NCBI GenBank assembly: GCA_048571215.1
Contig: CP182352.1
Location: 1,536,001-1,600,000 of the forward strand
Direction: 5' to 3'
Length of the DNA stretch: 64,000 nt
Source of the DNA: Halarcobacter sp.
GTDB taxonomy: Bacteria > Campylobacterota > Campylobacteria > Campylobacterales > Arcobacteraceae
Position numbers and translations under genes: made by a program
In this document: positions 6,904 through 56,337 of the stretch, in pieces
How the letters are laid out: the number at the start of each line of letters is the position of its first letter
Position numbering within the stretch: position 1 is the stretch's first letter
The notes under the pieces: generated by a model
Seen by the model: the letters and a program-made list of their open reading frames with translations, nothing else
Told to the model about the DNA's origin: nothing
Databases searched by the model: none

Positions 6904-7016
6904 AGATATCCCTGAATTATTAATAATTATATTGTTTTGTAATTTAAATTAACTTTAAGAAATAAATAGCATAAGATTAATTCATCATTTTTTTATAGTT
7001 GAAAGATACCTACATA

Positions 7017-7052
7017 ATAAGATATTTTATTTTTAAAAATAAAATATCTTAT
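7017..7052. repeat. Perfect 36-bp palindrome, probable terminator of the ABC-F gene
   Basis: ATAAGATATTTTATTTTT|AAAAATAAAATATCTTAT immediately downstream of the 7066 stop. Confidence 0.6.
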
Positions 7053-7065
7053 AAATGAAAAATTA

Positions 7066-8658: not shown

Positions 8659-8841
8659 AATATCTAATCTCCATAACTTATCTTGATTTTTGGGGATTAT
8701 ATCTAAATGTAACTATAATCTATGTTATATAAAAATAACTATTCTAAAAATTCTAATTTTTCTTTAATAAACTACCAACTAACAAATTTTTCATACAAAA
8801 AATACTCAAAACTATTACAATTAAATAAAAAAGGCTTTATC

Positions 8842-9606
8842 ATGGAAGCTAATAAAAAAATTTGGATAGTAGGTGGAAGTTCTGGTATTGGTTTAGAGCT
8901 TGTAAAACAATGTTTAGAAAAAGACTACTTAGTTATTGCAAGTTCTAGAAATGCAACAAAAACAAAAGAGCTTTTGGATTTAAAAAATGATTATCCCAAA
9001 ACCATCTCTTTTGTTGATATGGATGTAAATAATGAAAGTTCAATTTTAAATGGTATTTCTGATGCTTGGAATTGTTATGATGGGATTGATATCTGGTTTT
9101 ACAATGCGGGAGCTTATGAGATAATGTCCTTAGATGAATGGGATTATGATAAGTTTGAACAAATGAATAGCGTTAACTACTTGGGTGTTGTTAAGATTAT
9201 GACAAAACTCTTACCCCTTTATAAAAACAACAATATTCACACAAGATGGATTTGGAATTGTAGTATATCAAGCTATTTTGGACTACCGCAAGGTGGTGGT
9301 TATTCTGCTCCAAAAGCTGCCCTTGTAAATCTTGCTGAATCAATTCAGCCAGAACTTGATAAAAACAATATCAAACTTCAAATTATTAATCATGGCTTTG
9401 TGAAAACTAGATTAACTGAAAAAAATAAATTTGAGATGCCTCAAATTATGAGTCCAGAATTTACTGCAAAAAAGATTTTGGAAGGTATAGAAACCTCATC
9501 ATCTTTTGAGATACGATTTCCCTACAAATTATCTTTATTTCTTAGAATTTTAAAATTTTTACCATATAAGTTTTCATTAAAACTTACTAAAAAGTTAGTT
9601 CAATGA
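8842..9606 (+). CDS. SDR family oxidoreductase
   Basis: GGSSGIG, NAG, YSAPK; ATG at 8842 follows an AAGG RBS (the ORF-track start at 8722 is probably too early). Confidence 0.85.
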   Translation: MEANKKIWIVGGSSGIGLELVKQCLEKDYLVIASSRNATKTKELLDLKNDYPKTISFVDMDVNNESSILNGISDAWNCYDGIDIWFYNAGAYEIMSLDEWDYDKFEQMNSVNYLGVVKIMTKLLPLYKNNNIHTRWIWNCSISSYFGLPQGGGYSAPKAALVNLAESIQPELDKNNIKLQIINHGFVKTRLTEKNKFEMPQIMSPEFTAKKILEGIETSSSFEIRFPYKLSLFLRILKFLPYKFSLKLTKKLVQ

Positions 9607-10021
9607 ATACACAAGAATATAAAGATTTTTTTGAAAACTTATCAAAAGATACTCCAATTGAAGAGTATGAAAATATTTTTTCAATAAAAGCAAAATTTGA
9701 AGACCCTTTTCACAAAGTAGAAGGGGTTCAAGAGATTTATAATGTATTTAAAATGATGTATAAGAAGTTGGATTCACCAATTTTTAAAGTTAAAGAGATA
9801 GTTGAAAATTCAAATATCGCATATTTTAAGTGGGATTTTTACTTTTACTTTAAAAACAAAACTAAAAAACAAAGTTTTGAAGGAGTTAGTAGAATAGAAT
9901 TTGATAAAGAGGGAAAAGTTGTTTCCCATGTGGACTATTGGGATAGCGCCAAAACCTATATGAGAAAATTCCATTTTTATCAACACTATTTAGTTTTTTG
10001 AAAAATAGAATTAAAGAGTAA
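9603..10021 (+). CDS. SnoaL/NTF2-like protein with a 1-nt frameshift near the 3' end
   Basis: FEDPF and SHVDYWD motifs; adding one A at 9951-9954 gives the tail NLYEKIPFLSTLFSFLKNRIKE* ending at 10021. Confidence 0.75.
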
Positions 10022-10023
10022 AT

Positions 10024-11295
10024 ATGAGAAGTGATATCTTAGATAAAAAACTTGTAGTTTACTACAGTTTATTAGCAGTCCCTTTAGCAATCATAGGATT
10101 ACCTTTATACATATATCTACCAACATTTTATACATCAACTGTGGGTATAGATATCACTACTGTAGGTATTTTAATTTTTATTGCAAGATTAACAGATGTT
10201 ATAAGTGATCCAATCTTTGGCTATTTAAGTGATGAAAGTGTTAGAAGATACAACTCTAGAAAACCTCTAATAATCTTAGGCTCATTTATTTTAGTATTTA
10301 GTTTTTATTTAATTATAAATCCAAATGAATCATTTTCAAAAAGTTGGCTTTTGGTATTTTCTATACTCATATATATGGCTTGGAGTATGATTAATATACC
10401 CTATCTAACTTGGAGTTCAGAGATAAGTAAAAACTACAATCATAAAACAGTATTAAATAGTTCTAGGGAACTTTTTACTATATTAGGTGTTATTATAGCT
10501 TTAATAGTTCCTACCCTTTTAGAAGTCTCTAATGAACCGCAAAATACACTAAATGTTTTATTTATCTTATTTTTACTTATCTTTGTACCCTCTGTTTTTA
10601 TAATACTAAAAAAAATAAAAATACAGAAACCAAAAATCAATCAAACTTTCAATATAGGTGGATTAAGGAAGATATATAAAAATATGCCTGATATAATATA
10701 TTTGGATTTATCCTATTTTATTAATAACTTAGCTAATGCTCTTCCTGCTACTTTATTTTTATTGTTTATTGAGCATGTAATTGAAAAAAAAGAATATAGT
10801 GGAGTTATTTTAATTATCTATTTTTTTTCAGGGCTTATAGCACTACCTTTTTGGAACTACCTTTCATCTAAAATAGGAAAAAAAACCACTTGGGTAATAT
10901 CTATATTATTAGCTTCAAGTGCTTTTATATTTGTTTTAATGCTAAAAGCTAATGATATAGAGCTATTTATTGTTATAAGTATAATCTCTGGCTTATCTTT
11001 GGGTGCGGATATGGCTTTACCAACTTCAATGAAAGCTGATTTAGTACAAAAAAGTGAAAAGATTCAAAATAATAGTTCTGGGCTTCTATTTGGTATTTGG
11101 ACAATGATAACAAAATTTTCTTTGGCATTTGCAATTGCCCTTGGTTTTATAATACTTGGTTTCTTTGATTTTGATTCTAATGAACCAAATACCCAATCAC
11201 TATTTGTACTAACACTACTTTATGGTTTAGCACCAGTTATTTTAAAATTTCTAAGTCTGTTGTTATTATATAGATACCAAGATCATAATAGATAA
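10024..11295 (+). CDS. MFS transporter (GPH/MelB-like)
   Basis: About 12 TM segments; ARLTDVISDPIFGYLSD. Confidence 0.85.
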   Translation: MRSDILDKKLVVYYSLLAVPLAIIGLPLYIYLPTFYTSTVGIDITTVGILIFIARLTDVISDPIFGYLSDESVRRYNSRKPLIILGSFILVFSFYLIINPNESFSKSWLLVFSILIYMAWSMINIPYLTWSSEISKNYNHKTVLNSSRELFTILGVIIALIVPTLLEVSNEPQNTLNVLFILFLLIFVPSVFIILKKIKIQKPKINQTFNIGGLRKIYKNMPDIIYLDLSYFINNLANALPATLFLLFIEHVIEKKEYSGVILIIYFFSGLIALPFWNYLSSKIGKKTTWVISILLASSAFIFVLMLKANDIELFIVISIISGLSLGADMALPTSMKADLVQKSEKIQNNSSGLLFGIWTMITKFSLAFAIALGFIILGFFDFDSNEPNTQSLFVLTLLYGLAPVILKFLSLLLLYRYQDHNR

Positions 11296-11907: not shown

Positions 11908-13147
11908 AAAATACAAAATAGCAGTTCTTGGAGCTGGAATTAGTGGTTTAGGAGCTGCATATTTATTGAGTAAAAGACATGAAGTGGATCTTTATGAAAA
12001 AGAGTCTAGATTAGGTGGACATGCTAGAACTACTATGGTAAAAGAAACCCATAAGAGTTTTGGAGTTGATACAGGGTTTTTAGTATTTAATCACGAAACA
12101 TATCCACTTTTAACAAAACTATTTGAACAATTAGATGTAAAAATAGAAAACTCTGATATGAGTTTTGCTTTTTGGGATCAAAAGACTAATATAGCTTACA
12201 ATGGAGAATCTTTAAAGGGAATGTATTTTCAAAAAAGAAATATATTTTCATACTCACACAATAAAATGATTTTTGACATTTTAAAATTCAATAAAAAAGC
12301 AAATAAAGACCTTGAAGAGAATAATACAAATTTGGATTTGAATTTAGGTGAATATTTAGAACCCTATTCCAAATACTTTAAAGATAGATATATAATCCCT
12401 ATGGGAGCATCTATTTGGTCAACACCAACGGATAAAATGAATGATTTTCCTGCAAGAACCTTTATAAATTTTTTTAAAAATCATGGTCTATTAGGAGTTG
12501 ATACCCATCATCAATGGCTAACAGTTAGTGGAGGATCAATAAACTATGTAAATAAAATATCCCAACACATCTCTGGAAAAATCATAAAAAATAGCGATGT
12601 AACATCAGTAATAAGAGAAGAAAAACAAGTTATTTTAGTCCATAAAGATGGCAAAAAATCTTTTTATGACAAAGTTGTTTTTGCAATGCATGCACCTGAA
12701 GTATTAAAACTTTTAAAAAATCCTAGTGAAGATGAATTAAAAATTCTATCTGCTTTTAAATTTAAACAAAATGATGCAGTATTACATAATGATAAAAAAG
12801 CACTTTATCCTGACAAAAATATATATGCTGCATGGAACTATAAAACAAATGGTGAAGAAAAAAGTGTAACCCTATCATATTGGATTAATAGGTTACAAAA
12901 TCTAAATTCAACTAAAGAGTATTTTGTTTCTCTAAATGAAACAGAACAATTAAATGAAGTTATTGAAAGAATAAGTTACGAACACCCACAGTTTGATAAA
13001 GAAGCTATCCAAGCCCAATCAAAAAAAGAGTTAATCAGTGGTAAAAACAACACCTATTATGCTGGGGCATATTGGCGTTATGGTTTTCACGAAGATGGTT
13101 TATATAGTGCAAACTGTATTGCAAAAGAGTTTGGATGTGAATTATGA
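11894..13147 (+). CDS. FAD-dependent oxidoreductase (amine-oxidase fold; UfaD-like fatty-acid desaturase)
   Basis: GAGISG, RLGGHA, VDTGFLVFN, GFHEDG; adjacent to DUF1365 and CFA synthase. Confidence 0.85.
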   Translation: MNQDKKYKIAVLGAGISGLGAAYLLSKRHEVDLYEKESRLGGHARTTMVKETHKSFGVDTGFLVFNHETYPLLTKLFEQLDVKIENSDMSFAFWDQKTNIAYNGESLKGMYFQKRNIFSYSHNKMIFDILKFNKKANKDLEENNTNLDLNLGEYLEPYSKYFKDRYIIPMGASIWSTPTDKMNDFPARTFINFFKNHGLLGVDTHHQWLTVSGGSINYVNKISQHISGKIIKNSDVTSVIREEKQVILVHKDGKKSFYDKVVFAMHAPEVLKLLKNPSEDELKILSAFKFKQNDAVLHNDKKALYPDKNIYAAWNYKTNGEEKSVTLSYWINRLQNLNSTKEYFVSLNETEQLNEVIERISYEHPQFDKEAIQAQSKKELISGKNNTYYAGAYWRYGFHEDGLYSANCIAKEFGCEL

Positions 13148-13884
13148 ATCATAAATTTATAGATGGGAAAATATATCATAAAAGATATCTACCTAAAAAA
13201 CACGATTTTGAATACAAGTTTTTTATGCTTGATATTGATATATCAAGTTTCCAAGAGTTAAAAAATAGATACTTTTCTATAAATAGTTTTAATCTTTTTT
13301 CATTTTATACAAAAGACCATTTTGGCAAAAAAAATGAGTTTAAACAAAATATAAAAGATCTACTAAATAAATATTCTATTAAAGAAACAAAAGAAATGAG
13401 ATTTATAACCTTACCTTCTATTTTAGGATATGTATTCAACCCAATAAGTGTTTTAATACTATTTGAAAATGACAAACCTAAAAGTATGATAGCAGAAGTT
13501 CATAATTACAACGGTGGTAGAGTTATTTATCCTGTAGATTTAATAAGTGAAGATGAAAGATTTTATAAAGGAAAAGTTAAAAAAGATATGTATGTCTCCC
13601 CATTTTTTGAACGAGATGGAAAATATGAGTTTGACTTAATATATACAAAAGAAGAGCTTGTTTTAACTGTTAAATTATTTGAAAAAGATAAAAAGATGTT
13701 GATATCAACCTTTACGGGTAAAAGTAAAGAGTTTAATGAGAAAAATATCATCTCATTGTTTTTTAAACATACACTTTTAACCGTATGGGTTGTGACTAGA
13801 ACTATATGGCAAAGTATAAAACTAAAACTAAAAGGTTTATCCTGGAATAAACCAACACCCCAAGATCAATTTAGGAGGTTCTGA
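13144..13884 (+). CDS. DUF1365 family protein (UfaO-like)
   Basis: HKRY-x-PKKH, GYVFNPIS, AEVHN, YVSPF. Confidence 0.85.
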   Translation: MNHKFIDGKIYHKRYLPKKHDFEYKFFMLDIDISSFQELKNRYFSINSFNLFSFYTKDHFGKKNEFKQNIKDLLNKYSIKETKEMRFITLPSILGYVFNPISVLILFENDKPKSMIAEVHNYNGGRVIYPVDLISEDERFYKGKVKKDMYVSPFFERDGKYEFDLIYTKEELVLTVKLFEKDKKMLISTFTGKSKEFNEKNIISLFFKHTLLTVWVVTRTIWQSIKLKLKGLSWNKPTPQDQFRRF

Positions 13885-13886
13885 TT

Positions 13887-15113
13887 ATGGAAACTTTTTG
13901 GAATAAAGTAGGAGATAAATTTTTATCTAAAATAAAAGAGGGAACCTTAGAAGTTACCTTTTCAAATGGAAAAACTAGAATATATGGCAATAATAAAAAA
14001 CCAAAAGCTAAACTTTTATTAAACAATGCAAATATTTTTAAAAGACTAACTTTATATGGTGACATAGGCTTTGCAGAGAGTTATATGGACAAAGACTTTG
14101 AATGTGATAATTTAAGTTCTTTAATAGAGATTGCTTTAATAAATTCAGATTCTCTTGAAACAAAAAGTGAAGATGAAAAAAGATTGAGTTTTTATAATCT
14201 ATTTCCAGTATTAAATAAAATAAAACACTATATGAGAAGAAACTCAAAAACCAGATCTCAAAAAAACATATCACAACATTACGATTTATCAAATCAATTT
14301 TTTAAGCTTATGTTAGATGATACAATGATGTATTCATCAGCTGTTTTTGAAAACCCAAATGAATCTTTATATGAAGCTCAAAAAAGAAAAATCGACATTT
14401 TGGCAAAAAAACTAAATCTAAAAAAAGGCTCAAAAGTTTTAGAAATAGGCTCAGGATGGGGAGCAATGGCTATGCATTTGGTAAAAGAGTATGAGTGTGA
14501 AGTTACTACACTAACTCTATCAAAGGAGCAAAAAAAACTTTGTGAAGATAGGTTTAAAGAGCATAATATTGAAGAGTCAATTAATATCATGCTAAAAGAT
14601 TATAGGGATATGAAAGGTGAGTTTGATGCAATTATAGCAGTTGAGATGTTTGAGGCTGTAGGGCGCGAATATTTTGATGTGTTCTTTAAAAAATGTGAAT
14701 CTTTATTAAATCCTACTGGTATTTTAGTGATGCAGATTATTACAATGCCAGATCAAAGATATTCTTCATATTGCAATGGGACAGATTTTATTCAAAAATA
14801 TATTTTCCCTGGTGGTCATCTTCCAAGTGTAGGTAAGATATTAGATGTAACAACAAATCATACAAAACTAAACCTATTGCATATGGAAGAGTTTACAGAA
14901 CACTATGCAAAAACATTAAATATCTGGCATAAAAACTTTAATACAAAGATTGATGAAATAAAAGATTTAGGCTTTGATGAGTATTTCATAAGAATGTGGA
15001 GAATGTATCTATGTTATTGTGAAGCAGCTTTTTTAACTAGAAATATAAATTTAGTTCAAGTAGCTTTTACTAGATATCAAAATATTGCCTTAAACAAAGG
15101 ATTAGTAGCATGA
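13887..15113 (+). CDS. Cyclopropane-fatty-acyl-phospholipid synthase family SAM methyltransferase
   Basis: HYDLSN, MMYSSA, LEIGSGWG, EMFEAVG, YIFPGG. Confidence 0.9.
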   Translation: METFWNKVGDKFLSKIKEGTLEVTFSNGKTRIYGNNKKPKAKLLLNNANIFKRLTLYGDIGFAESYMDKDFECDNLSSLIEIALINSDSLETKSEDEKRLSFYNLFPVLNKIKHYMRRNSKTRSQKNISQHYDLSNQFFKLMLDDTMMYSSAVFENPNESLYEAQKRKIDILAKKLNLKKGSKVLEIGSGWGAMAMHLVKEYECEVTTLTLSKEQKKLCEDRFKEHNIEESINIMLKDYRDMKGEFDAIIAVEMFEAVGREYFDVFFKKCESLLNPTGILVMQIITMPDQRYSSYCNGTDFIQKYIFPGGHLPSVGKILDVTTNHTKLNLLHMEEFTEHYAKTLNIWHKNFNTKIDEIKDLGFDEYFIRMWRMYLCYCEAAFLTRNINLVQVAFTRYQNIALNKGLVA

Positions 15114-42203: not shown

Positions 42204-42770
42204 TTAAGTATCTAATACCTTCTTTATCAAATATGCACTATGTAATCTTTCAATCAATGTAAATTGATTATTAATAGGAGAATGTATTTTATTTTCGAAC
42301 AGTTTTATCTTTTCTAAGCCTACATTTCCATTTGTATAAATTAAAATAGGTATATTTTCATCAACACTTTTCAATAACTTAAACCATTCTTCTAATGTTT
42401 TATCATCTTCTGCAAATAAAATAATTATAGAAAAGTTATTTAATTTAATTTTTTCATTACAATTATTTATGTTCTTCATATTTCTAAATTTAGAAAATAT
42501 AGCCATATTATTAATTTTATTTTTATTATCATTACAAATTAAAATCTTACTTTCTCTAAAATCTTTAATATTTTTTATATCATTTAAATGCTCTAAAATT
42601 TCATTTCTATATCCATCAAACATTGAAGATAATTTATCTTTAATATTAGCATTAAAATAATCAGAAGTTTTTTTATCACATATAGTCTTAATAAGAAAAT
42701 ATATTAATACACCTAAGAATCCAATAATCAAGGCTAAAACTACTTTTGATATCAAACTTTCAAATTCCAT
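42204..42770 (-). CDS. CRISPR-associated membrane protein: N-terminal TM helix + C-terminal Rossmannoid/REC-like domain (Cam2/NARF-like candidate)
   Basis: TM VVLALIIGFLGVLIYFLI; beta-strand pattern KILIC / IIILF / ILIYT; starts 2 nt after the HEPN ORF. Confidence 0.55.
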   Translation of the reverse strand: MEFESLISKVVLALIIGFLGVLIYFLIKTICDKKTSDYFNANIKDKLSSMFDGYRNEILEHLNDIKNIKDFRESKILICNDNKNKINNMAIFSKFRNMKNINNCNEKIKLNNFSIIILFAEDDKTLEEWFKLLKSVDENIPILIYTNGNVGLEKIKLFENKIHSPINNQFTLIERLHSAYLIKKVLDT

Positions 42771-42772
42771 TT

Positions 42773-43832
42773 TTATTTTCCTCTTTTTCCATTAGATTTT
42801 TTTCTCTCAATAAAATAACTTGAATAATCATAAGACTCAATTGAATTATCAATTTTATGAAGGATAGAATTTATCTGAGTATAAATACTTTCTAAATCTT
42901 TTATTTCATCCTTCACAATAACTCTATTATGAGCTATTGCATTTCTTATCTTGGATAGTTTTTTCCACTTCACATCAAATAAATTTTGTTTATTTTCTAA
43001 TAAATTGCAAAAATATAATTCCCAATTTGTTTTAGGTAAAAACTTTTCTAAATCATCTATACAAGTTAATTTTCTCTCTAAGTATCTATTAATCAACTCT
43101 TTTTTTTCTTCTTTCGTTAATCTCTCATATGGTATAAACAAAAAATCCCTTATTTCTTTAAAGTCTACATAATACAAAATATCTCCACACTTGTAATCTA
43201 AATTATTATTTTTTCTTTTAACTCCATTTTTAATTTCTGTGGGAATAGTTTTGTCATACCAATTTGCACCCATAAAACGATACATTACCTTTGTTAAAAC
43301 TTTTCGCATCATAAAGCTTTGGATAATATTCATTACATATATATGCCTCATATGAATTAGATAGAACTAAGGGCTTATTTTTAGTTTCATCCATAATTAC
43401 TTTTTCTAGATACTCTTTTATATTTTCAAATAAACTAATTTTTTTTATACTATAAGGTGTATTCTTATAAGATATTTCCGAATCATCAACTTTTGGTTCA
43501 TTTTCATTTGTGCCAGTAATGTCCATTTCTTCTTCATAGAATAAATCACATTTTTTTTCAATATTATCAAATGTAATGGAAAAAATGAATATTCCTTCTT
43601 TTAGCATTTTAAATTGATAATTAAACTTTATTTCTTCATCATCATTAATAAAAAAATATTTACCATCTTTATTTATTTCTATAGATATATCTATTTCTTT
43701 TCCATCAATTTCAAATCTACTAATACTTTCCAAATTTCCTAAAATAATATGATTAAGAAAAAAATCTTCTTCTTTTTTGATTTTTGAAATAGCATTAACA
43801 TCAATTAAATATTCTAATTCGTAATTATTCAT
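42773..43832 (-). pseudogene. HEPN (Swt1/ApeA-like) ribonuclease gene split into two overlapping ORFs (43254-43832, 42773-43351)
   Basis: RxxxxH motif RNAIAH; YPKLY in ORF1 joins MRKVL...GANW in ORF2 near 43310; starts 2 nt after csm5. Confidence 0.65.
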
Positions 43833-43834
43833 AA

Positions 43835-44935
43835 CTATTCTTCTATCTCACACAATACCCATCCAAAAGGTAGTAAGGTATCAATACTATCTTCATTCTC
43901 TCCAAAAAGCCATGTAGTTGTTTCTTCTTCTAAGTTTTCCCAAATATTTTTCTTTCGTTTAGGACCGCCACCACTAACTTTTACTTTTATATTTCTTAAA
44001 CCATCTATTGTTACAGTTCTTGCTCCACTATGTTTTCCAATCCGTAATAAAAATTGATTTTTATTTTTAAACTCAAAGTTTAAATACTTTTCATAAAAAT
44101 CTTCTCTAAAATAATCAATTATAAAATCATATTCTAAAGAATCTTTATATAAATTTTTTTGTCTAAACATAGAATCAAATAATTCATAATAATGATCATT
44201 GCATGATTTTATTATCTTTTCAATTGTTATTTGCTCTTTAGAATTATAATCTTTAATTTGTAAAGATGTTTCAAATTCAGATTTTTCACATATAACTTCA
44301 ATTTTTGTTGATGGTCCTTGATTGTCATCTTCAAATCTCTCTTTATTTAAAGAAAAACCTATAAGAGAGGAACTATTTAGTATTTTTGTATCAGATATAG
44401 AAATATTTTTAAAAATACTTTCACTTGGCATTTGAAAAGTTTCTTTCAATTTTGAGTAGTTACTATTTTTGTAAATATATTCTTGATATGCAGTTGAGAT
44501 TGAGCCTTTGATACTACTTCCTGTAATATATGGATTACCAGTTATTTCATCTTTTATTGTTTTTTGAATTTGAAATTGGTTTATTACAGGTTTTTTTATT
44601 CCTGAGCCTTCAAATTTAGATATTATACCTATTCTCCTATTATACTCTTTTTCGATACCCTGGGTAACTTTCACTTTTAAGGTAAAAATATTTTTTACTA
44701 TATCTTTTCGTTTTTTTATAAATTTATTTATAGAAGATAATGCTAAGTTATCTTCTCTTGTTACTAATTCTTCAAATTTTGTTTTATCTTCTTTTGATAA
44801 ACTTTCAAAAAAACTAAATTCATCAAATTCATAAAGGAAACCATTATCTATAACGAAGTTTGTAGGTTCATATGATTCTCCTATGCCAATATGCATAGGA
44901 GTTAAAAGAGTCATTTTTAATTTATAAGTCTTCAT
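43835..44935 (-). CDS. csm5: Type III-A RAMP protein Csm5
   Basis: LTPMHIG, PYITGSSIKG, LRIGKHSG, PFGW. Confidence 0.85.
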   Translation of the reverse strand: MKTYKLKMTLLTPMHIGIGESYEPTNFVIDNGFLYEFDEFSFFESLSKEDKTKFEELVTREDNLALSSINKFIKKRKDIVKNIFTLKVKVTQGIEKEYNRRIGIISKFEGSGIKKPVINQFQIQKTIKDEITGNPYITGSSIKGSISTAYQEYIYKNSNYSKLKETFQMPSESIFKNISISDTKILNSSSLIGFSLNKERFEDDNQGPSTKIEVICEKSEFETSLQIKDYNSKEQITIEKIIKSCNDHYYELFDSMFRQKNLYKDSLEYDFIIDYFREDFYEKYLNFEFKNKNQFLLRIGKHSGARTVTIDGLRNIKVKVSGGGPKRKKNIWENLEEETTTWLFGENEDSIDTLLPFGWVLCEIEE

Positions 44936-45831
44936 TTTATTTCCTTTAAAGGAAAGAGTATAGAATACCCTTGATGTATAGCTTTTTCAAATGATGATAT
45001 ACCTTTAATAGCTTTACCATCATAAAATCTCTCTTTAGTGAATTTATATTTAATCACTGTTGAGTTTTTTGCTAAAAGTATAGGTTTTTTAAATGGATTA
45101 TCATTATCTACTTGGCTGGAGTTTTTACCAAATTTTGTTAAAGGAGAATAATATAATTCTTCACACTCTAAATTTTCCAATGAAATAGAAGATAATGTCA
45201 TATACGTTGTTGTTTCATTTTTTAAACTTATTTCTTCAAAATCTTCTTTTTGAAATATAAACCTACCTTTTCCTATAGAAGTTTTTTTGCCATAACCAAA
45301 CTCTGATATAAACTCCATACACTCTAATAATTTTTCTTTTTTAAATTGTTTTGATAATAAAAAATATATATCAAATTCAAAATCTTTTATTGGATATTCT
45401 TCTATACCAAAAGGTGAGAATCTATCTTTTTCGGTCCTAAAAGCAAGATAATTTAATGAGTTTTTCATAACATTTATTTTTTTATTTAAATCAACTCTTC
45501 CCTCTATATTATTGATATTTTTAGCATTTATATAATTTCCATTTTCTAAATCTTTTATTTTCAGCCACAATTTTTTTGAATTATTTTTCTTTTCTTTACT
45601 ATTTTCTTTTAAAAATTTCATAGGCATATTTGGCTTTGGAAGATAACCTTTAGGGAAGCCATCTGAAACAATCAAAAAGGGATTTTTATCATATTCTAAA
45701 AGTAATTCTTCTAACTTATCTTCACCATACTTATTTTTAATTGCCCAACATATTTGACCAAATAGAGTATCTCCTTGCAAAGATGTTGCAAAATTAGAAA
45801 TAGGCTTTATAGTAAGTTTATAAAGTTTCAT
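44932..45831 (-). CDS. csm4: Type III-A Cas5-group protein Csm4
   Basis: GDTLFGQICW, VSDGFP, GYGKKTSIGKG; likely start MKLYKL at 45831. Confidence 0.85.
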   Translation of the reverse strand: MKLYKLTIKPISNFATSLQGDTLFGQICWAIKNKYGEDKLEELLLEYDKNPFLIVSDGFPKGYLPKPNMPMKFLKENSKEKKNNSKKLWLKIKDLENGNYINAKNINNIEGRVDLNKKINVMKNSLNYLAFRTEKDRFSPFGIEEYPIKDFEFDIYFLLSKQFKKEKLLECMEFISEFGYGKKTSIGKGRFIFQKEDFEEISLKNETTTYMTLSSISLENLECEELYYSPLTKFGKNSSQVDNDNPFKKPILLAKNSTVIKYKFTKERFYDGKAIKGISSFEKAIHQGYSILFPLKEIK

Positions 45832-45833
45832 CA

Positions 45834-46511
45834 CTATTCCCATTTATCTTTATTACTAAAACTCACTCTTCCATAACCTCTTGTACCGTTTCCACCTAAA
45901 TAATCATCTTCAATAAGTTCTAAACCTTTTTTCACTATATCTTTTAATTTATCTTGTTCATCGTCAAATGGTTTATCTTCAATAATTTTTAAAGAAATAA
46001 TATAATTAAACTTTACCCCCCTACATACTCTTTCAGTTTGTCTTGGATGTTTTGCTGTTCCATTTGTTCTATCTATTACATTTTCATATTTTGATTCGGT
46101 AAGATTTTTTATATCTTTTTGTTCAATAAGACTACAATCAGAAAAGCTAAGTCTTGTAACACCATAATTTTCTCTTTTTTCTTCAGAATTCGCATCTCCA
46201 AAAAGTTTTATTAGATTTACTGCTTTCTCTTTTTTTCCCTCTTTTTCAAAAACTACATCAGAAAAATATTTTGAAGAAAAAGGTTTCCCTTTTTCCTTAT
46301 CATCTCTTCCAACATTAACCAATCCAAAATGCCATTCTAGTAAACTTCTCATCTTACCTTTTATACTACTTCCAGGGACATAAGGTTTATCAGTATTTAT
46401 ATCTTTTATAACACTATTACTAACACCTCCAATTTTCATAACATCATCACCAGCACCAATATGTAAACCTGTTAATACTTCTAACTCTCCAACTAATTTT
46501 AATATTTTCAT
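45834..46511 (-). CDS. csm3: Type III-A Cas7 backbone protein Csm3 (catalytic Asp apparently replaced by Ser)
   Basis: TGLHIG, PYVPGSSIKGKMRSLLE, ENVIDR, YLGGNGTRGYG; IGGVSNSVIKD; likely start at 46511. Confidence 0.9.
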   Translation of the reverse strand: MKILKLVGELEVLTGLHIGAGDDVMKIGGVSNSVIKDINTDKPYVPGSSIKGKMRSLLEWHFGLVNVGRDDKEKGKPFSSKYFSDVVFEKEGKKEKAVNLIKLFGDANSEEKRENYGVTRLSFSDCSLIEQKDIKNLTESKYENVIDRTNGTAKHPRQTERVCRGVKFNYIISLKIIEDKPFDDEQDKLKDIVKKGLELIEDDYLGGNGTRGYGRVSFSNKDKWE

Positions 46512-46512
46512 T

Positions 46513-46875
46513 TTAATCTCTCCCCTCAAAAAAACCTAGCACAGCTTCAAAAAAAAGTTTAAAACAAAGCAAAGTATCTTTTATATTTTCTTTTGTAATT
46601 AAACTTACACATTGACTCATCATATCCTGAAATTCTTTTGATACAACACCCCTACTTCTTGCATATGATACTTTTGAATTTAACATTTTTACAAAAGGAA
46701 TAATATTTTCAACATCTTCATTATTTTTATTCAACTTATTTTCTAAATCCATTATATATTCATAAAAATTTCTAAGTTGTGTTTTTTTAGTTTTACCTAT
46801 AGCTAAAGCCCATTCTTGCGCAACTTTATTAAAAAGTTCTTCATTTTTTGTATAATCTAATACTATATTTTGCAT
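46513..46875 (-). CDS. csm2: Type III-A small subunit Csm2 (Cas11)
   Basis: TQLRNFY, KVSYARSR, FFEAVLGF; 120 aa between cas10 and csm3. Confidence 0.88.
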   Translation of the reverse strand: MQNIVLDYTKNEELFNKVAQEWALAIGKTKKTQLRNFYEYIMDLENKLNKNNEDVENIIPFVKMLNSKVSYARSRGVVSKEFQDMMSQCVSLITKENIKDTLLCFKLFFEAVLGFFEGRD

Positions 46876-48444
46876 CTAGTCTCTCCCTTTATAAATAAAT
46901 TCACTTATTACCATCTTTGAAGCTTTTGGATTTTTCTCTATTTGTGTATCTAAGACTTTATATAAATCCTCATAACTTTCTTTTTTCATATTTCTTCTAA
47001 AACTATAATTTAGTTTTGATTTCCACATAGTAGATAAAACATCACCCTCTTTAACTTTTATTGACATTTCTATTAATTCTAAAAGAGAATAAAAAAATGC
47101 ACTTTTTTTATCTTCTTCTTCGATTTTACTAAGCTCATTTTCTAATACTTTTTTTACATCAATATACTCTTGCCACTTTACAGTTTCATCAAAAAGTGTA
47201 ATAGAGTCTTTATCTTGGTTTTCTTTTGATTTTTCAAGTAACTCTTCAATCTTAGAAGACATATAAGATATTGGTACATTTTCTTTACTTAGCATAATTG
47301 CTACACTTAATGTAAGGTTTTCGTTTGAAAAATTTCTAAATTCTTTATATATTTTTTCTGAAAAATCTATTATTTCATTCCATGCACCTATAATAAAAAA
47401 GTCATCTCCACCTGTAAAAACTACATAAGTATTTTTATAGTTTTCTTCTAAAAATTCTGGTACTTTTTGAGTGAAAAAGTTGTTTAAAGTATAAGAAAAA
47501 TAAATATAGTTTTCATAACTATCAAAAGCATTACTCTTATCTTTAATAAATTCTCCTAAACTATCAACATCACCTTTTATTACAGCTAAGTTTTCTGCAC
47601 CTTCTGTATTTTTTGCTAAATCATCAAAACTATAAGCCACACCTTTTTCGTTTGATTTTACATAAGATTTAATTTTCCAAAATTCTTTTAGGCTTTTAAA
47701 TTCATCATTTTCATTTTCTGAAAATGAAACATGGTAGTTATTGAAAATCTTTATACCACTATCATCATTTGAAATTTTCATATAATTTTTACTTGCTAAA
47801 TTTTCACCTAACTTTATAAAATCGTCACAAATTTTACAAACTTCTTTTTCCTCTTGTATTCTTCTTATTCCACAGGTTTTACATAGTGTTTGATTAGTTG
47901 GAACATCAACATAATCCAAAACTGTATTTTGATTTTGTAAATTAAACTTATTAAACTTTGCAAACTCCATCTTTTCGTTTAGTTTTTCTCTGATTTCTCT
48001 AAATTCTTTAGGATTAATTAGATATGATTTTAAAATATCCATGGATACAAGCTTTACCCCTGCTAGGGCAAAAAAGTTTTCTATAAAGTAATTATCTACT
48101 TCTTTTTGAATCTCTTCAATTTTATTTTTGTCAACTCTTGGAGATAGTATTTCTATTTTTCCAGCCTCACTAAAAATAATATTTTCTTCCTCTAGTCCTA
48201 AAACTTTTAGTATATATAGGGATAATACTTTTGTAAATATTTGTACATAAGCTGATTTTGCTCTTAATACTTTATAAGCTTTTGATGATGGTACATTTTC
48301 AAAAATAAAGTTTTGTATTCCATAAAAATCTGCACAAATGATAGTCAACTCATTGTCTTTTAAAATATCATCTATTTTTAAAATATCTTTTTTAAATAAT
48401 TCACTATATTTTTTATTAAATACATTTTTAACTTCTATCATCAA
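46876..48444 (-). CDS. cas10: Cas10/Csm1 without HD domain; Palm cyclase motifs intact
   Basis: Begins almost at DFYGIQNFIF; zinc finger CKTC/CKIC; KGDVDSLG; VFTGGDDFF; only 522 aa. Confidence 0.9.
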   Translation of the reverse strand: MMIEVKNVFNKKYSELFKKDILKIDDILKDNELTIICADFYGIQNFIFENVPSSKAYKVLRAKSAYVQIFTKVLSLYILKVLGLEEENIIFSEAGKIEILSPRVDKNKIEEIQKEVDNYFIENFFALAGVKLVSMDILKSYLINPKEFREIREKLNEKMEFAKFNKFNLQNQNTVLDYVDVPTNQTLCKTCGIRRIQEEKEVCKICDDFIKLGENLASKNYMKISNDDSGIKIFNNYHVSFSENENDEFKSLKEFWKIKSYVKSNEKGVAYSFDDLAKNTEGAENLAVIKGDVDSLGEFIKDKSNAFDSYENYIYFSYTLNNFFTQKVPEFLEENYKNTYVVFTGGDDFFIIGAWNEIIDFSEKIYKEFRNFSNENLTLSVAIMLSKENVPISYMSSKIEELLEKSKENQDKDSITLFDETVKWQEYIDVKKVLENELSKIEEEDKKSAFFYSLLELIEMSIKVKEGDVLSTMWKSKLNYSFRRNMKKESYEDLYKVLDTQIEKNPKASKMVISEFIYKGRD

Positions 48445-49262
48445 ATCTCCTTAACCTCTATTTTCCCAAGTCCAAAAACTGTTTGTTTTCCTACATTTAA
48501 TAGTTCTGCTATTTTTAGTATTTTATAGTTTTGTTCACTTAAATCTTTTACAACTAAACTTCCCATTACACCATCAAATTTCATTTTTGTTTTTTGGGGA
48601 CTACTATATCTTGTAAGATTTTTTTTATAGAGGTTTTTATTTACTACTTTATACTCTTTTGTTACTTCTAGTTTTGGCGCATTTGGATAGATGTATTCAT
48701 ATCTTTTTCTACTTGAAAGCAAGATATCAAAAAGGTCTAAACTATCATCATATATAAGTTTATTTTCTTTTTTTATTCTTATGGGTGTTAGTATATTTAT
48801 AGCTACGTCTTTTTTTGTTTCACTCTCTTTATACTCTTTTTGTGTAATATTTTTTAAATCAAAGGTTTCGTTTTCATAAACCAAAATATCATTTACATAT
48901 ATTTTAAACTCATTAAAATACTTATTCTCTTTTCCAAGACCAATAGAAGTTAATAACTTATGAAAACTTGAAAGTATAAAAGGAAGTTGTTCACATACCT
49001 CATCAAAAAGATAAAAAGAAAAATCATAAGATTTGTTGCCAAGAGATATATCAAATCTATATTTATGATAATTATCTTCCAAATAAAATGTGTAAAAAAG
49101 ACAATTATCTTTTGCAAAACAATTTTCACATTCGTATGTTGGATTTATGCAAACCACTTTTTTAAGAGCATACCCCAAAGCCCCACGAAGCTGACTTCCA
49201 GTAAAATAAGGAGGCATATACTCTTCATATATTTTTATATCTATTTTGTAATATTTCATCAA
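48441..49262 (-). CDS. cas6: Cas6 pre-crRNA endoribonuclease (Cys-cluster type)
   Basis: GSQLRGALG, C-x5-C-x2-C-x5-C cluster, C-terminal G-loop VGKQTVFGLG. Confidence 0.88.
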   Translation of the reverse strand: MMKYYKIDIKIYEEYMPPYFTGSQLRGALGYALKKVVCINPTYECENCFAKDNCLFYTFYLEDNYHKYRFDISLGNKSYDFSFYLFDEVCEQLPFILSSFHKLLTSIGLGKENKYFNEFKIYVNDILVYENETFDLKNITQKEYKESETKKDVAINILTPIRIKKENKLIYDDSLDLFDILLSSRKRYEYIYPNAPKLEVTKEYKVVNKNLYKKNLTRYSSPQKTKMKFDGVMGSLVVKDLSEQNYKILKIAELLNVGKQTVFGLGKIEVKEI

Positions 49263-49478
49263 ATAACTTTTAAATATTGTATTTTCTTTTATTATATTAT
49301 AAATTATATTAATCTTTTAAAATAACTTTTTCCAACTAAATTTAAAAAAATCTATGATAAACTACCATAATATCAAAGTTCTTTAAAAACCTATTGTTTT
49401 TAATAAAATGCTTGGAAAAATCCAATCAAATCCCATAAAAAGGGGAAATTAAGATTTTAAAAGCACCTATTTACTTTG
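49263..49478 (+). promoter_or_regulatory. AT-rich CRISPR leader and divergent cas promoter region
   Basis: Non-coding, between cas6 and the first perfect repeat; contains the inverted pair TTTTTCCAA...TTGGAAAAA. Confidence 0.65.
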
Positions 49479-51343
49479 GTAGAGACCTGACATATAAGGG
49501 ATTAAAACGACTATCAAGTGCTTTTATATTTTTATTATCTACTGTAGAGACCTGACATATAAGGGATTAAAACTTAAAAACAGACATCTATATTCTCCTT
49601 ATTGTTTGTGTAGAGACCTGACATATAAGGGATTAAAACTTACTAGAGCTGTAAATTTTACAGAGTTACCAGAGTGTAGAGACCTGACATATAAGGGATT
49701 AAAACGAGTTATTATGAATTTTTATTGATTTTGTTAAAAAGTAGAGACCTGACATATAAGGGATTAAAACTATTATTACTTAATATTTTATTTTATAACA
49801 ATTTTTCTGTAGAGACCTGACATATAAGGGATTAAAACTACTATTTAAAGCCATGATATCCCCCTTACTTTTCTGTAGAGACCTGACATATAAGGGATTA
49901 AAACGTAGATAACTAAACATTCTATTATTTTATCAACTTGTAGAGACCTGACATATAAGGGATTAAAACCTGGGTGAAAAACTTGGAGTGGTGGGAAGAA
50001 ATATGTAGAGACCTGACATATAAGGGATTAAAACAAATAAGATAATCCCTCTGCAATAGTATTAAATCCGTAGAGACCTGACATATAAGGGATTAAAACT
50101 GAAAAAGAGAAACACTAGCAGAATGAATATAATTACGTAGAGACCTGACATATAAGGGATTAAAACATTTGTAATTAATCCATATCTTGTAATGCTCCTT
50201 GTAGAGACCTGACATATAAGGGATTAAAACGCATCTTTGTATATGTCTTTCCATATCCAAAAAGCTAGTAGAGACCTGACATATAAGGGATTAAAACATA
50301 ATCACCAATTAGCTTTAAATCTTCTTTTTTATAGGTAGAGACCTGACATATAAGGGATTAAAACCAATTTTACTTAGTTCAAAAAGACTGTAATCTTCAT
50401 TGTAGAGACCTGACATATAAGGGATTAAAACTCCACTAAGTCTTTTTTGGAAGTCTTTAAGTTAAGAGTAGAGACCTGACATATAAGGGATTAAAACATG
50501 ACACTTGAAACTTTTTTTAACACAAACGAAACAGTAGAGACCTGACATATAAGGGATTAAAACTTAAAAGCGTGAAGTTGATCTATTAGTTCTGTACCGT
50601 AGAGACCTGACATATAAGGGATTAAAACTATAGTTCCACATCTTTTGTCTAATACTTATTTTGTAGAGACCTGACATATAAGGGATTAAAACATTAAAGG
50701 TTGAGCTGTATCATAGTTTACTCCTAGTGTAGAGACCTGACATATAAGGGATTAAAACTAGCATATGCTATTTTGTTTTCGACACTAGATAAGTAGAGAC
50801 CTGACATATAAGGGATTAAAACTTTACATAAGTTTCATTTAGTGTTAAATATGCTTCTGTAGAGACCTGACATATAAGGGATTAAAACTTTGAAAATGCA
50901 AAAGGTCTTTTATGTTCCGCATCATTGTAGAGACCTGACATATAAGGGATTAAAATTGAAATAAAATTTATCAAACCAAATAATAAACCTAGTAGAGACC
51001 TGACATATAAGGGATTAAAATGCAGATACAACACAAAAACCATTATCTTTGAATGCTGTAGAGACCTGACATATAAGGGATTTAAAATACCTATGCCTAA
51101 TTGTTGTCTACCTTGTACTTGTAGTAGAGACCTGACATATAAGGGATTAAAATTTCCAAATATGGTGAACAGTAGGTGCAATATCATGTAGAGACCTGAC
51201 ATATAAGGGATTAAAATAATTTTACTGTTGCACTTACACTAGTTGCAGCCATTGTAGAGACCTGACATATAAGGGATTAAAATAATGATGTAAATACTCG
51301 TAATCAGGACAATCAAACTGTAGAGACCTGACATATAAGGGAT
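49479..51343 (+). CRISPR. CRISPR array: 29 repeats (GTAGAGACCTGACATATAAGGGATTAAAAC, 30 bp) and 28 spacers of about 34-38 bp
   Basis: Repeats counted directly; the 3' ATTAAAAC handle and degeneration at the right end set the + orientation. Confidence 0.97.
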
Positions 51344-51673
51344 GTTTTTAATAAATAAGGAATAACGAATAATGAATAATCTTCTTCAACTTTTCATTTT
51401 TCACTTTTCATTATTCATTTATATTGACCTGACATATAAGGAATGTTTTTAATGAATAATGAATAATCTTCTTTAATTTTTCATTTTTCACTTTTCATTA
51501 TTCATTTATATTGACCTGCCATATAAGGGATTAAAACGATACACACATATCAAATTGTTTCTCTTCAAAGCTAGTAGAGACCTGACATATAAGGGATGTT
51601 TTTAATGAATAAGGAATAACGAATAATGAATAATCTTCTTCAATTTTTCATTTTTCACTTTTCATTATTCATT
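51344..51673 (+). repeat. Degenerate CRISPR trailer: partial repeats, one extra spacer and three heptamer-based inverted-repeat blocks
   Basis: Partial repeats at 51426, 51513 and 51574; spacer 51538-51573; AATGAAT-type and TTTTCAT-type heptamer arms in three blocks. Confidence 0.85.
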
Positions 51674-51678
51674 ACTAT

Positions 51679-54721: not shown

Positions 54722-55096
54722 ATGATAATAAAAAACTTAAGAATAGAAAATGGTTGGTCACAAGAAAAATTAGCTGAAATCACTGGATTGAGTTTAAGAA
54801 CTATACAAAGAGTAGAAAAAGAGGACAAAGCTAGCTTGGAATCTCTAAATCTTTTAGCTAATGCTTTTAGCTTAGATATTAAACAACTACAAGATAAATT
54901 AAAAAATAAACCTTTTAAAACTGAAACTGAAACTAAAAATAATCATAAGAAAATAATCACAATTTTTATTGCTGTAAACTTACTACTTATTACTATAAAT
55001 CTTTTAACAAACTCTAGTCACTTATGGTTTATCTATCCATTATTAGGATGGGGAATTCCACTTTTTTATAAAATATATATAAAAGAAAAGCTTTAA
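54722..55096 (+). CDS. XRE HTH protein with C-terminal 2TM domain
   Basis: WSQEKLAEITGLSLRTIQRVE; WFIYPLLGWG. Confidence 0.8.
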   Translation: MIIKNLRIENGWSQEKLAEITGLSLRTIQRVEKEDKASLESLNLLANAFSLDIKQLQDKLKNKPFKTETETKNNHKKIITIFIAVNLLLITINLLTNSSHLWFIYPLLGWGIPLFYKIYIKEKL

Positions 55097-56337
55097 AATC
55101 TACTATTTTTTATCACTTTTTCTATCTTTTTTTTATCCACTTTAAGATTTTTTGCTTCTTGTTTAAATCTACTTATAAAATACTCTTTTATGTTTTTTAC
55201 TAACTCCTCTATCTCTTTGTCACTTCCTATTGAAAACATCTTTGAAACAGCTTTTATATCCTCTATACTAAAATCATCTCTTTTTCCATTTATACTCATT
55301 TGGTGTTTTGCTGTATAGTCATTGCCTTTATTATATGTGATATCATATAAAGGTGCAGTTTTCCAAACTCCTTTTTCATCCATCAAAAAAGAGAAGTTTT
55401 TTGTATGATCATCTTGATTACAAGTAATTACATTGTATAACATATGGATAAATGCACTCTCCAATTGCTGTCTATCTTTAGTAAGGTATTCAACTACTCT
55501 TAAATACTCTTCGTAAGAGTAAGAACCTGGTATATTAAAATTTGTATGAGTAAGCCCGCATAAAGAGTGCATATGTATTTTTTTATCTTCTATAATATCA
55601 AATCTTTTTACTAAAAGATGACTAAAATCTCTTTCGTGAAAAATCTCTACATCTGCTACGTTTAAATCAAGCTCTTTTGCTATTTTCATATAGATATACT
55701 CAACTTTTCCATAATCTGCTGGAACATAATCTTTTCCAACACCATCAAATTTTATAAGATAGTTCTCAAAACCTTTTTTAAAAGGTAGTCTTCCTGATAC
55801 TATTTCATTTGTAGTTTTATTCCATTGAATAACCGCTTTTGCTCTAGCTCCCCCTGCACTTCCTCCTGATGATATTAGTTCAGGAATTGCAACTGTAATA
55901 TCCCCTTTTATAATCTTTCTAGCATCATCAACCAAAGATTTTATCTCTAAAGATTCTTTTAAAATCTCTGTTGGTTCATTTGGAATATACTCCAAAGCTC
56001 CCATACCAGTTTTTCCTATATATGCTAACTTTTGTATTGATGATAATTCATACTCATTTATCCCTTTTTTTGCATAAAATCTTTTTATAACCTCATTTCC
56101 AAATTTATCAGGTAAAGAATCAAAAAATACTCCAGCTAAACCTTCAAAAAATCTATCATCACTATTGTTATAAACAGCAGTTGTCTCTAAAGGCAATTTT
56201 ATAGGGGATATCTCTAAACCACTATTTTTAAACTCATCTTCATATTCAAAATATATATTATCTTTCTCATCTAAAGATAAAAACCCAACTATTTGCCCAT
56301 AAAGTTGTACAATCAAAGAATCATTATTCGTTTTCAT
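55093..56337 (-). CDS. hipA: HipA family kinase toxin
   Basis: DSLPD-x-FG, GMGALEY, SAGGARAKA, KRFD, NQDDHTKNFSF, PLYD. Confidence 0.85.
   Translation of the reverse strand: MKTNNDSLIVQLYGQIVGFLSLDEKDNIYFEYEDEFKNSGLEISPIKLPLETTAVYNNSDDRFFEGLAGVFFDSLPDKFGNEVIKRFYAKKGINEYELSSIQKLAYIGKTGMGALEYIPNEPTEILKESLEIKSLVDDARKIIKGDITVAIPELISSGGSAGGARAKAVIQWNKTTNEIVSGRLPFKKGFENYLIKFDGVGKDYVPADYGKVEYIYMKIAKELDLNVADVEIFHERDFSHLLVKRFDIIEDKKIHMHSLCGLTHTNFNIPGSYSYEEYLRVVEYLTKDRQQLESAFIHMLYNVITCNQDDHTKNFSFLMDEKGVWKTAPLYDITYNKGNDYTAKHQMSINGKRDDFSIEDIKAVSKMFSIGSDKEIEELVKNIKEYFISRFKQEAKNLKVDKKKIEKVIKNSRF

Follow-up and report, generated by a model that had tools for sequence, protein, structure and literature searches.

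A type III-A CRISPR module of Halarcobacter sp. with serine at the catalytic position of Csm3 and a Cas10 without an HD domain

Introduction

When Csm3 or Cmr4 cleaves the target RNA, this is held to act as the built-in off-switch for type III signalling, and engineered RNase-dead mutants of these complexes are hyperactive, even lethal. RNA-detection assays currently employ D-to-A mutants.

The activity depends on an aspartate that, in the III-Dv complex, coordinates the catalytic Mg2+; the authors of that study propose that target cleavage returns Cas10 to its inactive state (PMC11026444). In the paper describing the structures 9zs2 and 9zs4, the Serratia marcescens Csm3 is a D34A mutant that has no RNase activity, and D34 is named as the catalytic residue (PMC13060164). 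In the Pfu Cmr4 mutant D26N, the asparagine, though isosteric, still blocks cleavage (PMC7192623). The III-G, III-H and type VII systems are reported to have lost the catalytic aspartates of Cas7 in nature (Makarova et al. 2025, PMC12669027). The literature that we searched, supplements aside, contained no account of a naturally occurring III-A Csm3 in which Ser or Asn stands at the catalytic site, and Hoikkala et al. 2024 never mention Csm3 or Cas7 (0 occurrences).

Here we describe a type III-A module from the marine-type Arcobacteraceae genome of Halarcobacter sp., in which the catalytic aspartate of Csm3 is a serine and Cas10 has no HD domain, while its GGDD cyclase motif is intact. In what follows, the window is the entire stretch of DNA analysed, 64,000 nucleotides of contig CP182352.1 (positions 1,536,001 to 1,600,000), and all coordinates are positions in it.

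Results

Organization of the locus and its CRISPR array

The gene order of the module is cas6 – cas10 – csm2 – csm3 – csm4 – csm5, followed by orfA, orfB and orfC, all on the minus strand (Table 1). All of the RAMP genes of the genome are in this locus and there are no others elsewhere. The Cas6 protein exceeds the cut-off of its Pfam family (Table 1) and remains below that of TIGR01877 (43.5 bits, cut-off 58.65). With respect to membership in type III-A, the locus has the Palm with its GGDD motif and Csm2; the N-terminal HD nuclease domain is absent.

Table 1. Features of the type III-A locus in the window.
Feature	Position	Strand	Description
orfC	42204..42770	-	188 aa; N-terminal membrane helix and stalk, then predicted CheY-like receiver-fold domain
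orfB	42773..43351	-	HEPN-like motif RNAIAH
orfA	43254..43832	-	no family match above threshold
csm5	43835..44935	-	366 aa; TIGR01899 41 bits (cut-off 38.3)
csm4 (Cas5)	44932..45843	-	303 aa; TIGR01903 102.5 bits (cut-off 55)
csm3 (Cas7 backbone subunit)	45834..46511	-	225 aa; ATG at 46511-46509
Ser31 codon (AGT) of csm3	46419..46421	-	position of the catalytic Asp
csm2 (Cas11 small subunit)	46513..46875	-	120 aa; TIGR01870 58.2 bits (cut-off 30.6)
cas10/csm1	46876..48444	-	522 aa; lacks an HD domain, retains the GGDD motif of the cyclase intact
cas6	48441..49262	-	273 aa; PF10040 40.8 bits (cut-off 25)
AT-rich putative leader	49263..49478	+	216 nt between cas6 and the array
CRISPR array	49479..51603	+	30-nt repeat (GTAGAGACCTGACATATAAGGGATTAAAAC) in 31 copies; spacers 34-38 nt

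The AT-rich gap beyond cas6 would be the leader of the array. Perfect copies make up 22 of the 31 repeats and adjoin the cas6 end, the degenerate ones are at the far end, and the spacers are all unique. The repeat occurs nowhere else in the genome, all 29 of its 29 matches being within the array. It ends in ATTAAAAC, which resembles the usual 8-nt tag of type III systems, and for this reason the plus strand is the probable reading direction of the crRNAs. A megablast search of the phage and plasmid collections gave no match to any spacer, and against the host genome there were just chance matches of 17-18 nt. Neither cas1 nor cas2 is present in the locus; the sole cas1 of the genome lies at a distance of 1.67 Mb, in a locus that by its gene sizes resembles type I-B and whose repeat, aligned by hand, is identical to that of the window array at about 20 of 30 nt.

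Serine at the catalytic position of Csm3

The csm3 product is unmistakably a Csm3. It matches TIGR02582 at 195 bits (cut-off 90) over the full length of the profile (positions 4-203 of 203), it retrieved 23 Csm3/Cas7 sequences from the PDB at E<=0.01, and its gene is situated between csm2 and csm4 within the cas10 operon; a search of its own genome gave no second match at E<=0.001. The minus strand from 46463 to 46401 translates as HIGAGDDVMKIGGVSNSVIKD. The range 46401-46460 that a first-pass annotation had assigned to this peptide holds for I18 to D37 and falls one codon short of H17, which is at 46461-46463.

That annotation had proposed that the catalytic Asp of Csm3 is replaced by Ser, and both the reading frame and the alignments to solved Csm3 proteins agree with it. 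In HMMER, residues 4-65 align without a gap to the S. epidermidis Csm3 (7uzw, IGAIDSPV), with S31 opposite D32, and S31 likewise faces the alanine that was engineered into the dead-Csm3 entries 9g9a (IGAIASPV) and 9zs2 (IGGIASAV). Ser31 therefore occupies the column that in the IG(G/A)xD motif of Csm3 holds the catalytic Asp. The further claim that loss of this carboxylate abolishes cleavage is borne out by the mutants Pfu Cmr4 D26N (PMC7192623) and S. marcescens Csm3 D34A (PMC13060164), the latter from the solved homolog nearest to the window protein.

How rare such a replacement is can be seen in an alignment of 151 rows, consisting of 150 representatives of Csm3 clusters (50% identity) and the window protein. 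The catalytic column has 135 Asp, 5 Ser (the window protein included), 4 Glu, 2 Asn, one each of Leu, Gln and Ala, and 2 gaps, so that 16 of the 151 rows are without Asp: 14 by substitution, the window protein among them, and 2 by a gap. To judge by these sequences, the Asp has been lost repeatedly, in a minority of Csm3 proteins.

An AGT codon is two base changes from either GAT or GAC; the first-pass annotation, counting from GAT, had considered a sequencing error unlikely, and here it was correct. An independent complete genome (designated G148), whose Csm3 is 76% identical to that of the window, has the very same AGT, and the same peptide is found in three further database proteins. A sequencing or assembly error at this one codon is refuted by these findings, and we give it practically no weight.

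A lineage-fixed substitution under purifying selection

In a search of 5.8 billion proteins, the best 120 homologs of the window Csm3 include four with the sequence IGGVSNSV, namely the protein of the window itself and the three relatives nearest to it, at 70-75% identity. The other 116 read IGG[IV]DN, are at most 64% identical to it and, where named, are mostly from Campylobacterota. A search of the 184 genomes of the family turned up the module in G148 (locus L013), a complete genome from another genus, with the identical codon in its csm3; within the genus of the window, the 24 further species that were searched gave no match. One of the G148 proteins carries the source name Malaciobacter canalis. 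In a search of metagenomes for more Ser-type loci, the 306 stretches that matched the motifs IGA[GS]DD[VI]M and VSNSVIKD included no relative of Csm3.

In the columns where conservation among the 116 Asp-type relatives reaches 90% or more, the Ser clade has just six fixed differences (G20A, I30V, D31S, L50I, S138T and S210T), and the sole radical change among these is D31S. Pairwise dN/dS values between the window and G148 (NG86 method) are in the range 0.19-0.36 for all seven shared genes; with a value of 0.21, csm3 is the second most constrained gene of the module. D31S is a lineage-fixed trait under purifying selection, not an error, and it looks like the targeted loss of a side chain in a protein that is otherwise maintained, rather than decay. 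The codons (Asp GAC, Asn AAT, Ser AGT) lay out a two-step path, and Ser could thus have been reached via Asn, a state that is present in the sister lineage described below.

These data bear directly on the possibility that the module is simply a decaying or silent remnant, out of use in immunity, with the Ser as just one neutral lesion among several. There are observations that would suit such a reading: the locus is without its own cas1 and cas2, the spacers match nothing in the collections, the search for known CARF effectors came up empty (see below) and the module is missing from all the further species covered by the search of the genus. It is nevertheless improbable in the face of seven genes that are intact and constrained in two genomes, a Csm3 with one radical change only at its conserved columns, an intact GGDD, and an array that has kept its perfect repeats and unique spacers.

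Can other residues of Csm3 compensate?

A more serious alternative is that the Ser-type Csm3 still cleaves, the metal being positioned by D22/D23, by the insertion at residues 69-75, or by Ser31 itself via a water molecule; the system would then act as an ordinary HD-less type III-A. The first-pass annotation had pointed to a nearby GDD in this sense. This motif comprises residues 21-23, so that D22 and D23 sit 8-9 residues upstream of S31. The Ser clade also has a charged insertion of its own, 4-5 residues in length, after helix 1 (about residues 69-75, RDDKEKG), and the constraint on csm3 is compatible with retained catalysis as well.

The suggestion that the GDD compensates was not, however, supported by comparison. 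All 120 of the best homologs have the motif, among them the 116 in which the Asp is retained, and hence it did not arise alongside the loss of the Asp. Positions 22 and 23 are moreover variable in the family at large, with D in 42 of the 151 rows at each. In S. marcescens, Csm3 D34A is RNase-dead (PMC13060164) although that protein has an Asp at the equivalent of D22, and in Pfu Cmr4 the change to Asn suffices to kill the activity (PMC7192623). Apart from E9 and the charged insertion, there is no new acidic position fixed in the Ser clade. We consequently regard retained cleavage as unlikely.

Loss of the HD domain and of the Csm3 aspartate

The Cas10 of the locus scored 370.6 bits against TIGR02578, in a match confined to model positions 225-750, and its Pfam domains are Csm1_B and a second palm domain (PF22335), with no HD. 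The motif FTGGDDFF is present, and the GGDD is conserved in both of the Ser-type Cas10 proteins, those of the window and of G148. Because the cas10 start lies 4 nt inside the end of cas6, there is no room for an N-terminal domain, and neither an HD motif nor an upstream ORF was found at the cas10 of this locus. The difference is apparent from protein length as well, the HD-bearing relatives in loci L014 and L015 having 750-781 aa versus the 522 aa of the window Cas10.

It had been suggested in the first-pass annotation that one should look for the substitution in company with an HD-less Cas10, and both Ser-type loci are indeed HD-less. For a broader view, we assembled 164 loci: the window, 4 from the search of the family, 79 genome contigs (one duplicate dropped) and 80 metagenome contigs. 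In 116 of these the Csm3 residue and the whole Cas10 ORF were both readable, and a Cas10 was classed as HD-less if its N-terminal extension was shorter than 60 aa. The HDxGK motif is present in 87 loci, with 86 Asp and 1 Glu in the Csm3 column; an N-terminal extension without this motif is found in 15 loci, all with Asp; and the 14 loci with HD-less Cas10 have 11 Asp, 2 Ser (the window and G148) and 1 Asn (L019, from a Sulfurimonas endosymbiont). The contig of one more Asn-type csm3 (L105) has no cas10. Non-acidic replacements thus occur in 3 of the 14 HD-less loci versus 0 of the 102 loci with a Cas10 N-terminal domain, an association that amounts to two independent events only. With the Asp intact as the commoner HD-less state (11/14), it is clear that loss of the HD does not force loss of the Asp.

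A Cas10 tree of 19 rows, hand-chosen from 85 loci (12 Campylobacterota and 7 outgroups), places the five HD-less Campylobacterota proteins in one clade with support of 100/99. The Csm3 residues of the corresponding loci are S, S, D, D and N, and on this basis the HD was probably lost once, the Csm3 Asp being then lost twice within the HD-less clade, to Ser in one lineage and to Asn in another. Such a pattern suggests an order of events in which the DNase (HD) went first and the RNase second. There is an experimental parallel in Pfu, where a Cmr4 D26N strain was unobtainable unless the HD and Csx1 were also inactive (PMC7192623); by analogy, this viability pattern fits a scenario in which loss of the Asp is tolerated only after loss of the HD.

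The accessory genes and the search for an effector

What, then, might respond to a signal from this Cas10? The only accessory gene common to both Ser-type loci is orfC, whose ortholog in G148 (L013) directly follows csm5. The two proteins are 60% identical (tblastn), with a dN/dS of 0.35, and just five members of the family were found in the search of 5.8 billion proteins. An AF2 model built from these five sequences (pLDDT 78.5) has a long N-terminal helix with a hydrophobic start and then a five-stranded alpha/beta domain. In this model, residues 69-188 superimpose on receiver domains with VIA-align Z scores of 10.2-11.9 (about 11-12) and rmsd of 2.5-3.6 A, and the best Foldseek E value is 5.5e-3; the domain as modelled would have the (beta-alpha)5 fold of CheY-like receivers. 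By eye, from the alignment and the strands of the model, A120 at the end of strand 3 is invariant and is followed by E/D/N, there is no Lys after strand 5, and D81 and T146 are invariant; on this view neither the phospho-acceptor Asp expected at the end of strand 3 nor the Lys of strand 5 seems to be conserved. Pfam Response_reg gave no match to the protein.

Identification of orfC as a CARF protein was not upheld: the best PDB sequence match has E 0.22, and NCBIfam, Pfam and PADLOC gave no match. Nor did it fare better as a CARF/SAVED domain in the fold searches, which list receiver domains only, with no CARF chain among the matches listed. Its Atlas feature matches, at most 0.81, were at the level of noise. 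In size and layout orfC is reminiscent of Cam1, a membrane-anchored cOA effector that is small and in which an alpha/beta sensor-like domain comes after the N-terminal transmembrane helix; it differs in that its own domain matches CheY-like receivers, with no CARF chain among the matches listed. From its gene neighbourhood we propose that orfC is a candidate signal receiver or effector.

The other two genes, orfA and orfB, form an insert (42773..43832) between csm5 and orfC that has no tblastn match in L013. The product of orfB matches PADLOC PDC-M34B (E 9.5e-8) and, below the cut-off, Pfam HEPN_Swt1 (E 0.0026). The pair was considered as a split csx1 and rejected, since with the Csx1-like proteins of L022 and L019 only the HEPN motif IRNxIAH is in common (BLASTP E 0.05-0.5).

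Searches for Csx1/Csm6, for CARF2 (PADLOC) and for Pfam Card1_endonuc were negative in both genomes (0/2; that of the window, G000, and G148), although divergent sensors are possible. PF09651 matched nothing at all, the controls included, so this particular search is uninformative. There is a SAVED protein in G000 only, 0.63 Mb from the locus, and none in G148. With no known CARF effector found, the signalling output would be without a recognised receiver. The other HD-less loci are different in this respect: the Asn-type L019 has a classical Csx1 (CARF-HEPN, PADLOC E 1e-117) directly after csm5, and the Asp-type L022 has a Csx1-like gene upstream.

In view of the loss of both nucleases, the failure to find CARF effectors and the conservation of a membrane protein with a pseudo-receiver-like domain, one might imagine that the complex now serves as an RNA-guided binder that does not cleave, acting for example in gene regulation or recruited to the membrane via orfC, in place of immunity by a messenger. 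We consider this very improbable, given that the GGDD is conserved in both Ser-type Cas10 proteins, that the spacers have only chance-length matches in the host, and that the Asn-type sister lineage keeps its classical Csx1 beside csm5.

Discussion

The interpretation that we favour, and think probable, is that this type III-A module has been reduced to an RNase-dead RNA sensor coupled to a signal generator. A backbone of Csm3(S31) would still bind crRNA and target RNA and build the complex, but as each 6-nt site has lost the carboxylate by which the Asp keeps the catalytic Mg2+ in place, the target RNA would be left uncut or very poorly cut. The HD-less Cas10 has kept its GGDD, and binding of a matching transcript should hence start the synthesis of its nucleotide messenger. 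Lacking cleavage by Csm3, the timer that turns Cas10 off would be missing, and signalling would go on until the RNA dissociates or is destroyed by other RNases. The messenger would then act on the membrane protein orfC, or on some unrecognised effector, to arrest the infected cell. By analogy with the engineered mutants, we infer both the RNase deadness and the prolonged signalling of the wild-type complex. A wider scheme, which we put forward as no better than tentative, is that in the type III-A systems of Campylobacterota the loss of the HD was followed by at least two RNase switch-offs (Ser and Asn) that yielded timer-less sensors, with Csx1 replaced in the Ser lineage by a new family of membrane-anchored pseudo-receivers (orfC), which would then be a new sensor fold in type III signalling.

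If the favoured interpretation is correct, a natural and conserved Csm3 without the catalytic Asp would show that evolution can dispense with the timer. As neither a ring nuclease nor a known effector is visible, the module would also be a test case for how self-harm is avoided. It would point to orfC as the candidate receiver, and it would furnish a naturally optimised RNase-dead Csm (dCsm) scaffold for RNA-detection assays.

Comparison with known systems

The closest relatives of the locus in architecture are the canonical III-A Csm systems of S. epidermidis, S. thermophilus and S. marcescens (7uzw, 6ifn and 9zs2), which have the same gene set and order. The window Csm3 matches their structures with E values from 1e-39 to 1e-29 and, like them, has the G-rich loop, the helix PGSS[IL]KGK and, at its C-terminus, the motif GGxGxRGYG. 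Unlike them, it has Ser for the catalytic Asp (D32, D33 or D34, depending on the protein), its Cas10 is without the HD, and the locus has neither a Csm6, Csx1 or NucC effector nor cas1/cas2.

With respect to the missing carboxylate, the better comparison is with the engineered dead complexes, S. marcescens Csm3 D34A and Pfu Cmr4 D26N. As in those, the target would be expected to be bound uncut and Cas10 to be kept active (PMC13060164, PMC7192623). These are laboratory mutants, however, whereas the state in the window is natural, is present in at least two genomes and arose in a Cas10 lineage that appears to have been already HD-less.

The natural cases of Asp loss are of another kind. In III-G and III-H, the Palm is inactivated and the HD apparently active, with DNA cleavage predicted (PMC12669027); the window Cas10 is the reverse, with the GGDD intact and the HD absent, and it therefore does not have the inactive Palm/GGDD and active HD that define these two subtypes. 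Type VII employs Cas14 (PMC12669027), whereas the window has the III-A architecture with Csm2.

Finally, the locus resembles the III-Dv system of Synechocystis and the III-A system of S. marcescens, with its degenerate HD and NucC, in that immunity would be expected from the cyclase product alone (PMC11026444, PMC13060164). Both of these systems keep their catalytic Cas7 aspartates and cleave the target RNA, where the window Csm3 has Ser, and both carry recognised effectors (Csx1 and NucC), of which none was found in the window locus. What is known from these sources is the natural loss of the Cas7 Asp (III-G, III-H and type VII) on the one hand and HD-less signalling on the other; the window locus combines the loss of the Asp, the loss of the HD and an intact GGDD.

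Natural variation at the catalytic position of Csm3

The Ser31 of the window protein is not the only departure from the catalytic Asp among natural Csm3 proteins. A Sulfurimonas endosymbiont of Alviniconcha (type III-A comparison locus L019) has Asn at this position (codon AAT, motif IGGINNGV), and here too the residue was lost naturally, in a second and independent event; the Cas10 of this locus (507 aa) is HD-less and a Csx1 gene (CARF-HEPN) adjoins its csm5. The same IGGINNGV motif occurs in a metagenome contig (L105), and further 50%-identity Csm3 clusters are also without the Asp: P0148 (motif IGGTSNSV), P0216, P0248, P0253, P0237, P0259, P0197 and P0208. In these eight clusters the replacing residue is Ser four times, Asn twice, and Gln and Ala once each.

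The Ser-type Csm3 proteins (the window protein, 45834-46511, and its three closest homologs) have in common a charged insertion of 4-5 residues after helix 1, at about residues 69-75, with the variants RDDKEKG, RDDEDEG, RNEEDKG and RTKDEEG; 105 of the 116 Asp-type relatives have a gap there.

Location of the features discussed
Feature	Location	Strand	Remark
Asn-type locus, Sulfurimonas endosymbiont of Alviniconcha	L019:9962-10678 and 12900-14120
Two-ORF insert, csm5 to orfC	window 42773-43832	-	neither ORF in the sister locus
124-aa and 414-aa ORFs	window 54722-56337	opposite	judged by appearance
SAVED-domain ORF (L102)	G000:C1:2212752-2213357		PF18145, E 1.7e-25
HD-less type III-A module, Campylobacter concisus	L022:215-6198		compact defence island
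Duplicated far end of array	window 51320-51678
Second CRISPR-Cas locus (L183, G000:C1:3243000-3262000)	about 1976-10964 and 11850-14770 of L183		includes cas1

Accessory and neighbouring genes

Within the two-ORF insert, orfB carries a HEPN-like motif (RNAIAH) and hits PDC-M34B, a candidate defence gene of PADLOC (E 9.5e-8); orfA gave no family match. Since 98 nt are shared by the two ORFs, orfB may instead begin at an in-frame ATG at position 43273. Elsewhere in the window, a 414-aa ORF that by eye resembles a HipA-type kinase toxin is overlapped at its end by an ORF of 124 aa on the opposite strand, apparently a helix-turn-helix protein. The SAVED-domain ORF of the host genome lies 0.63 Mb from its type III locus. 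In Campylobacter concisus, the module's neighbours in the defence island are a Csx1-like gene, a DarT/Macro (DarTG-like) pair, a WYL regulator and a cas1 gene.

CRISPR arrays and the second CRISPR-Cas locus

The window array has a duplication at its far end: a degenerate repeat with GTTTTT as its last letters is found at both 51320 and 51574, with a 158-nt stretch between the copies, and the 105-nt segments 51320-51424 and 51574-51678 are 96% identical.

The only cas1 of the host genome is that of its second CRISPR-Cas locus, which, judged by its ORF sizes (245, 602, 307, 239, 733, 270, 164, 341 and 104 aa), looks like type I-B. Since about 20 of the 30 nt of its repeat, CTTGAACCAAGACATATAATGTATTGAAAT, agree with the type III repeat of the window in a hand alignment, this locus may be the source of spacer acquisition in trans for the type III array.
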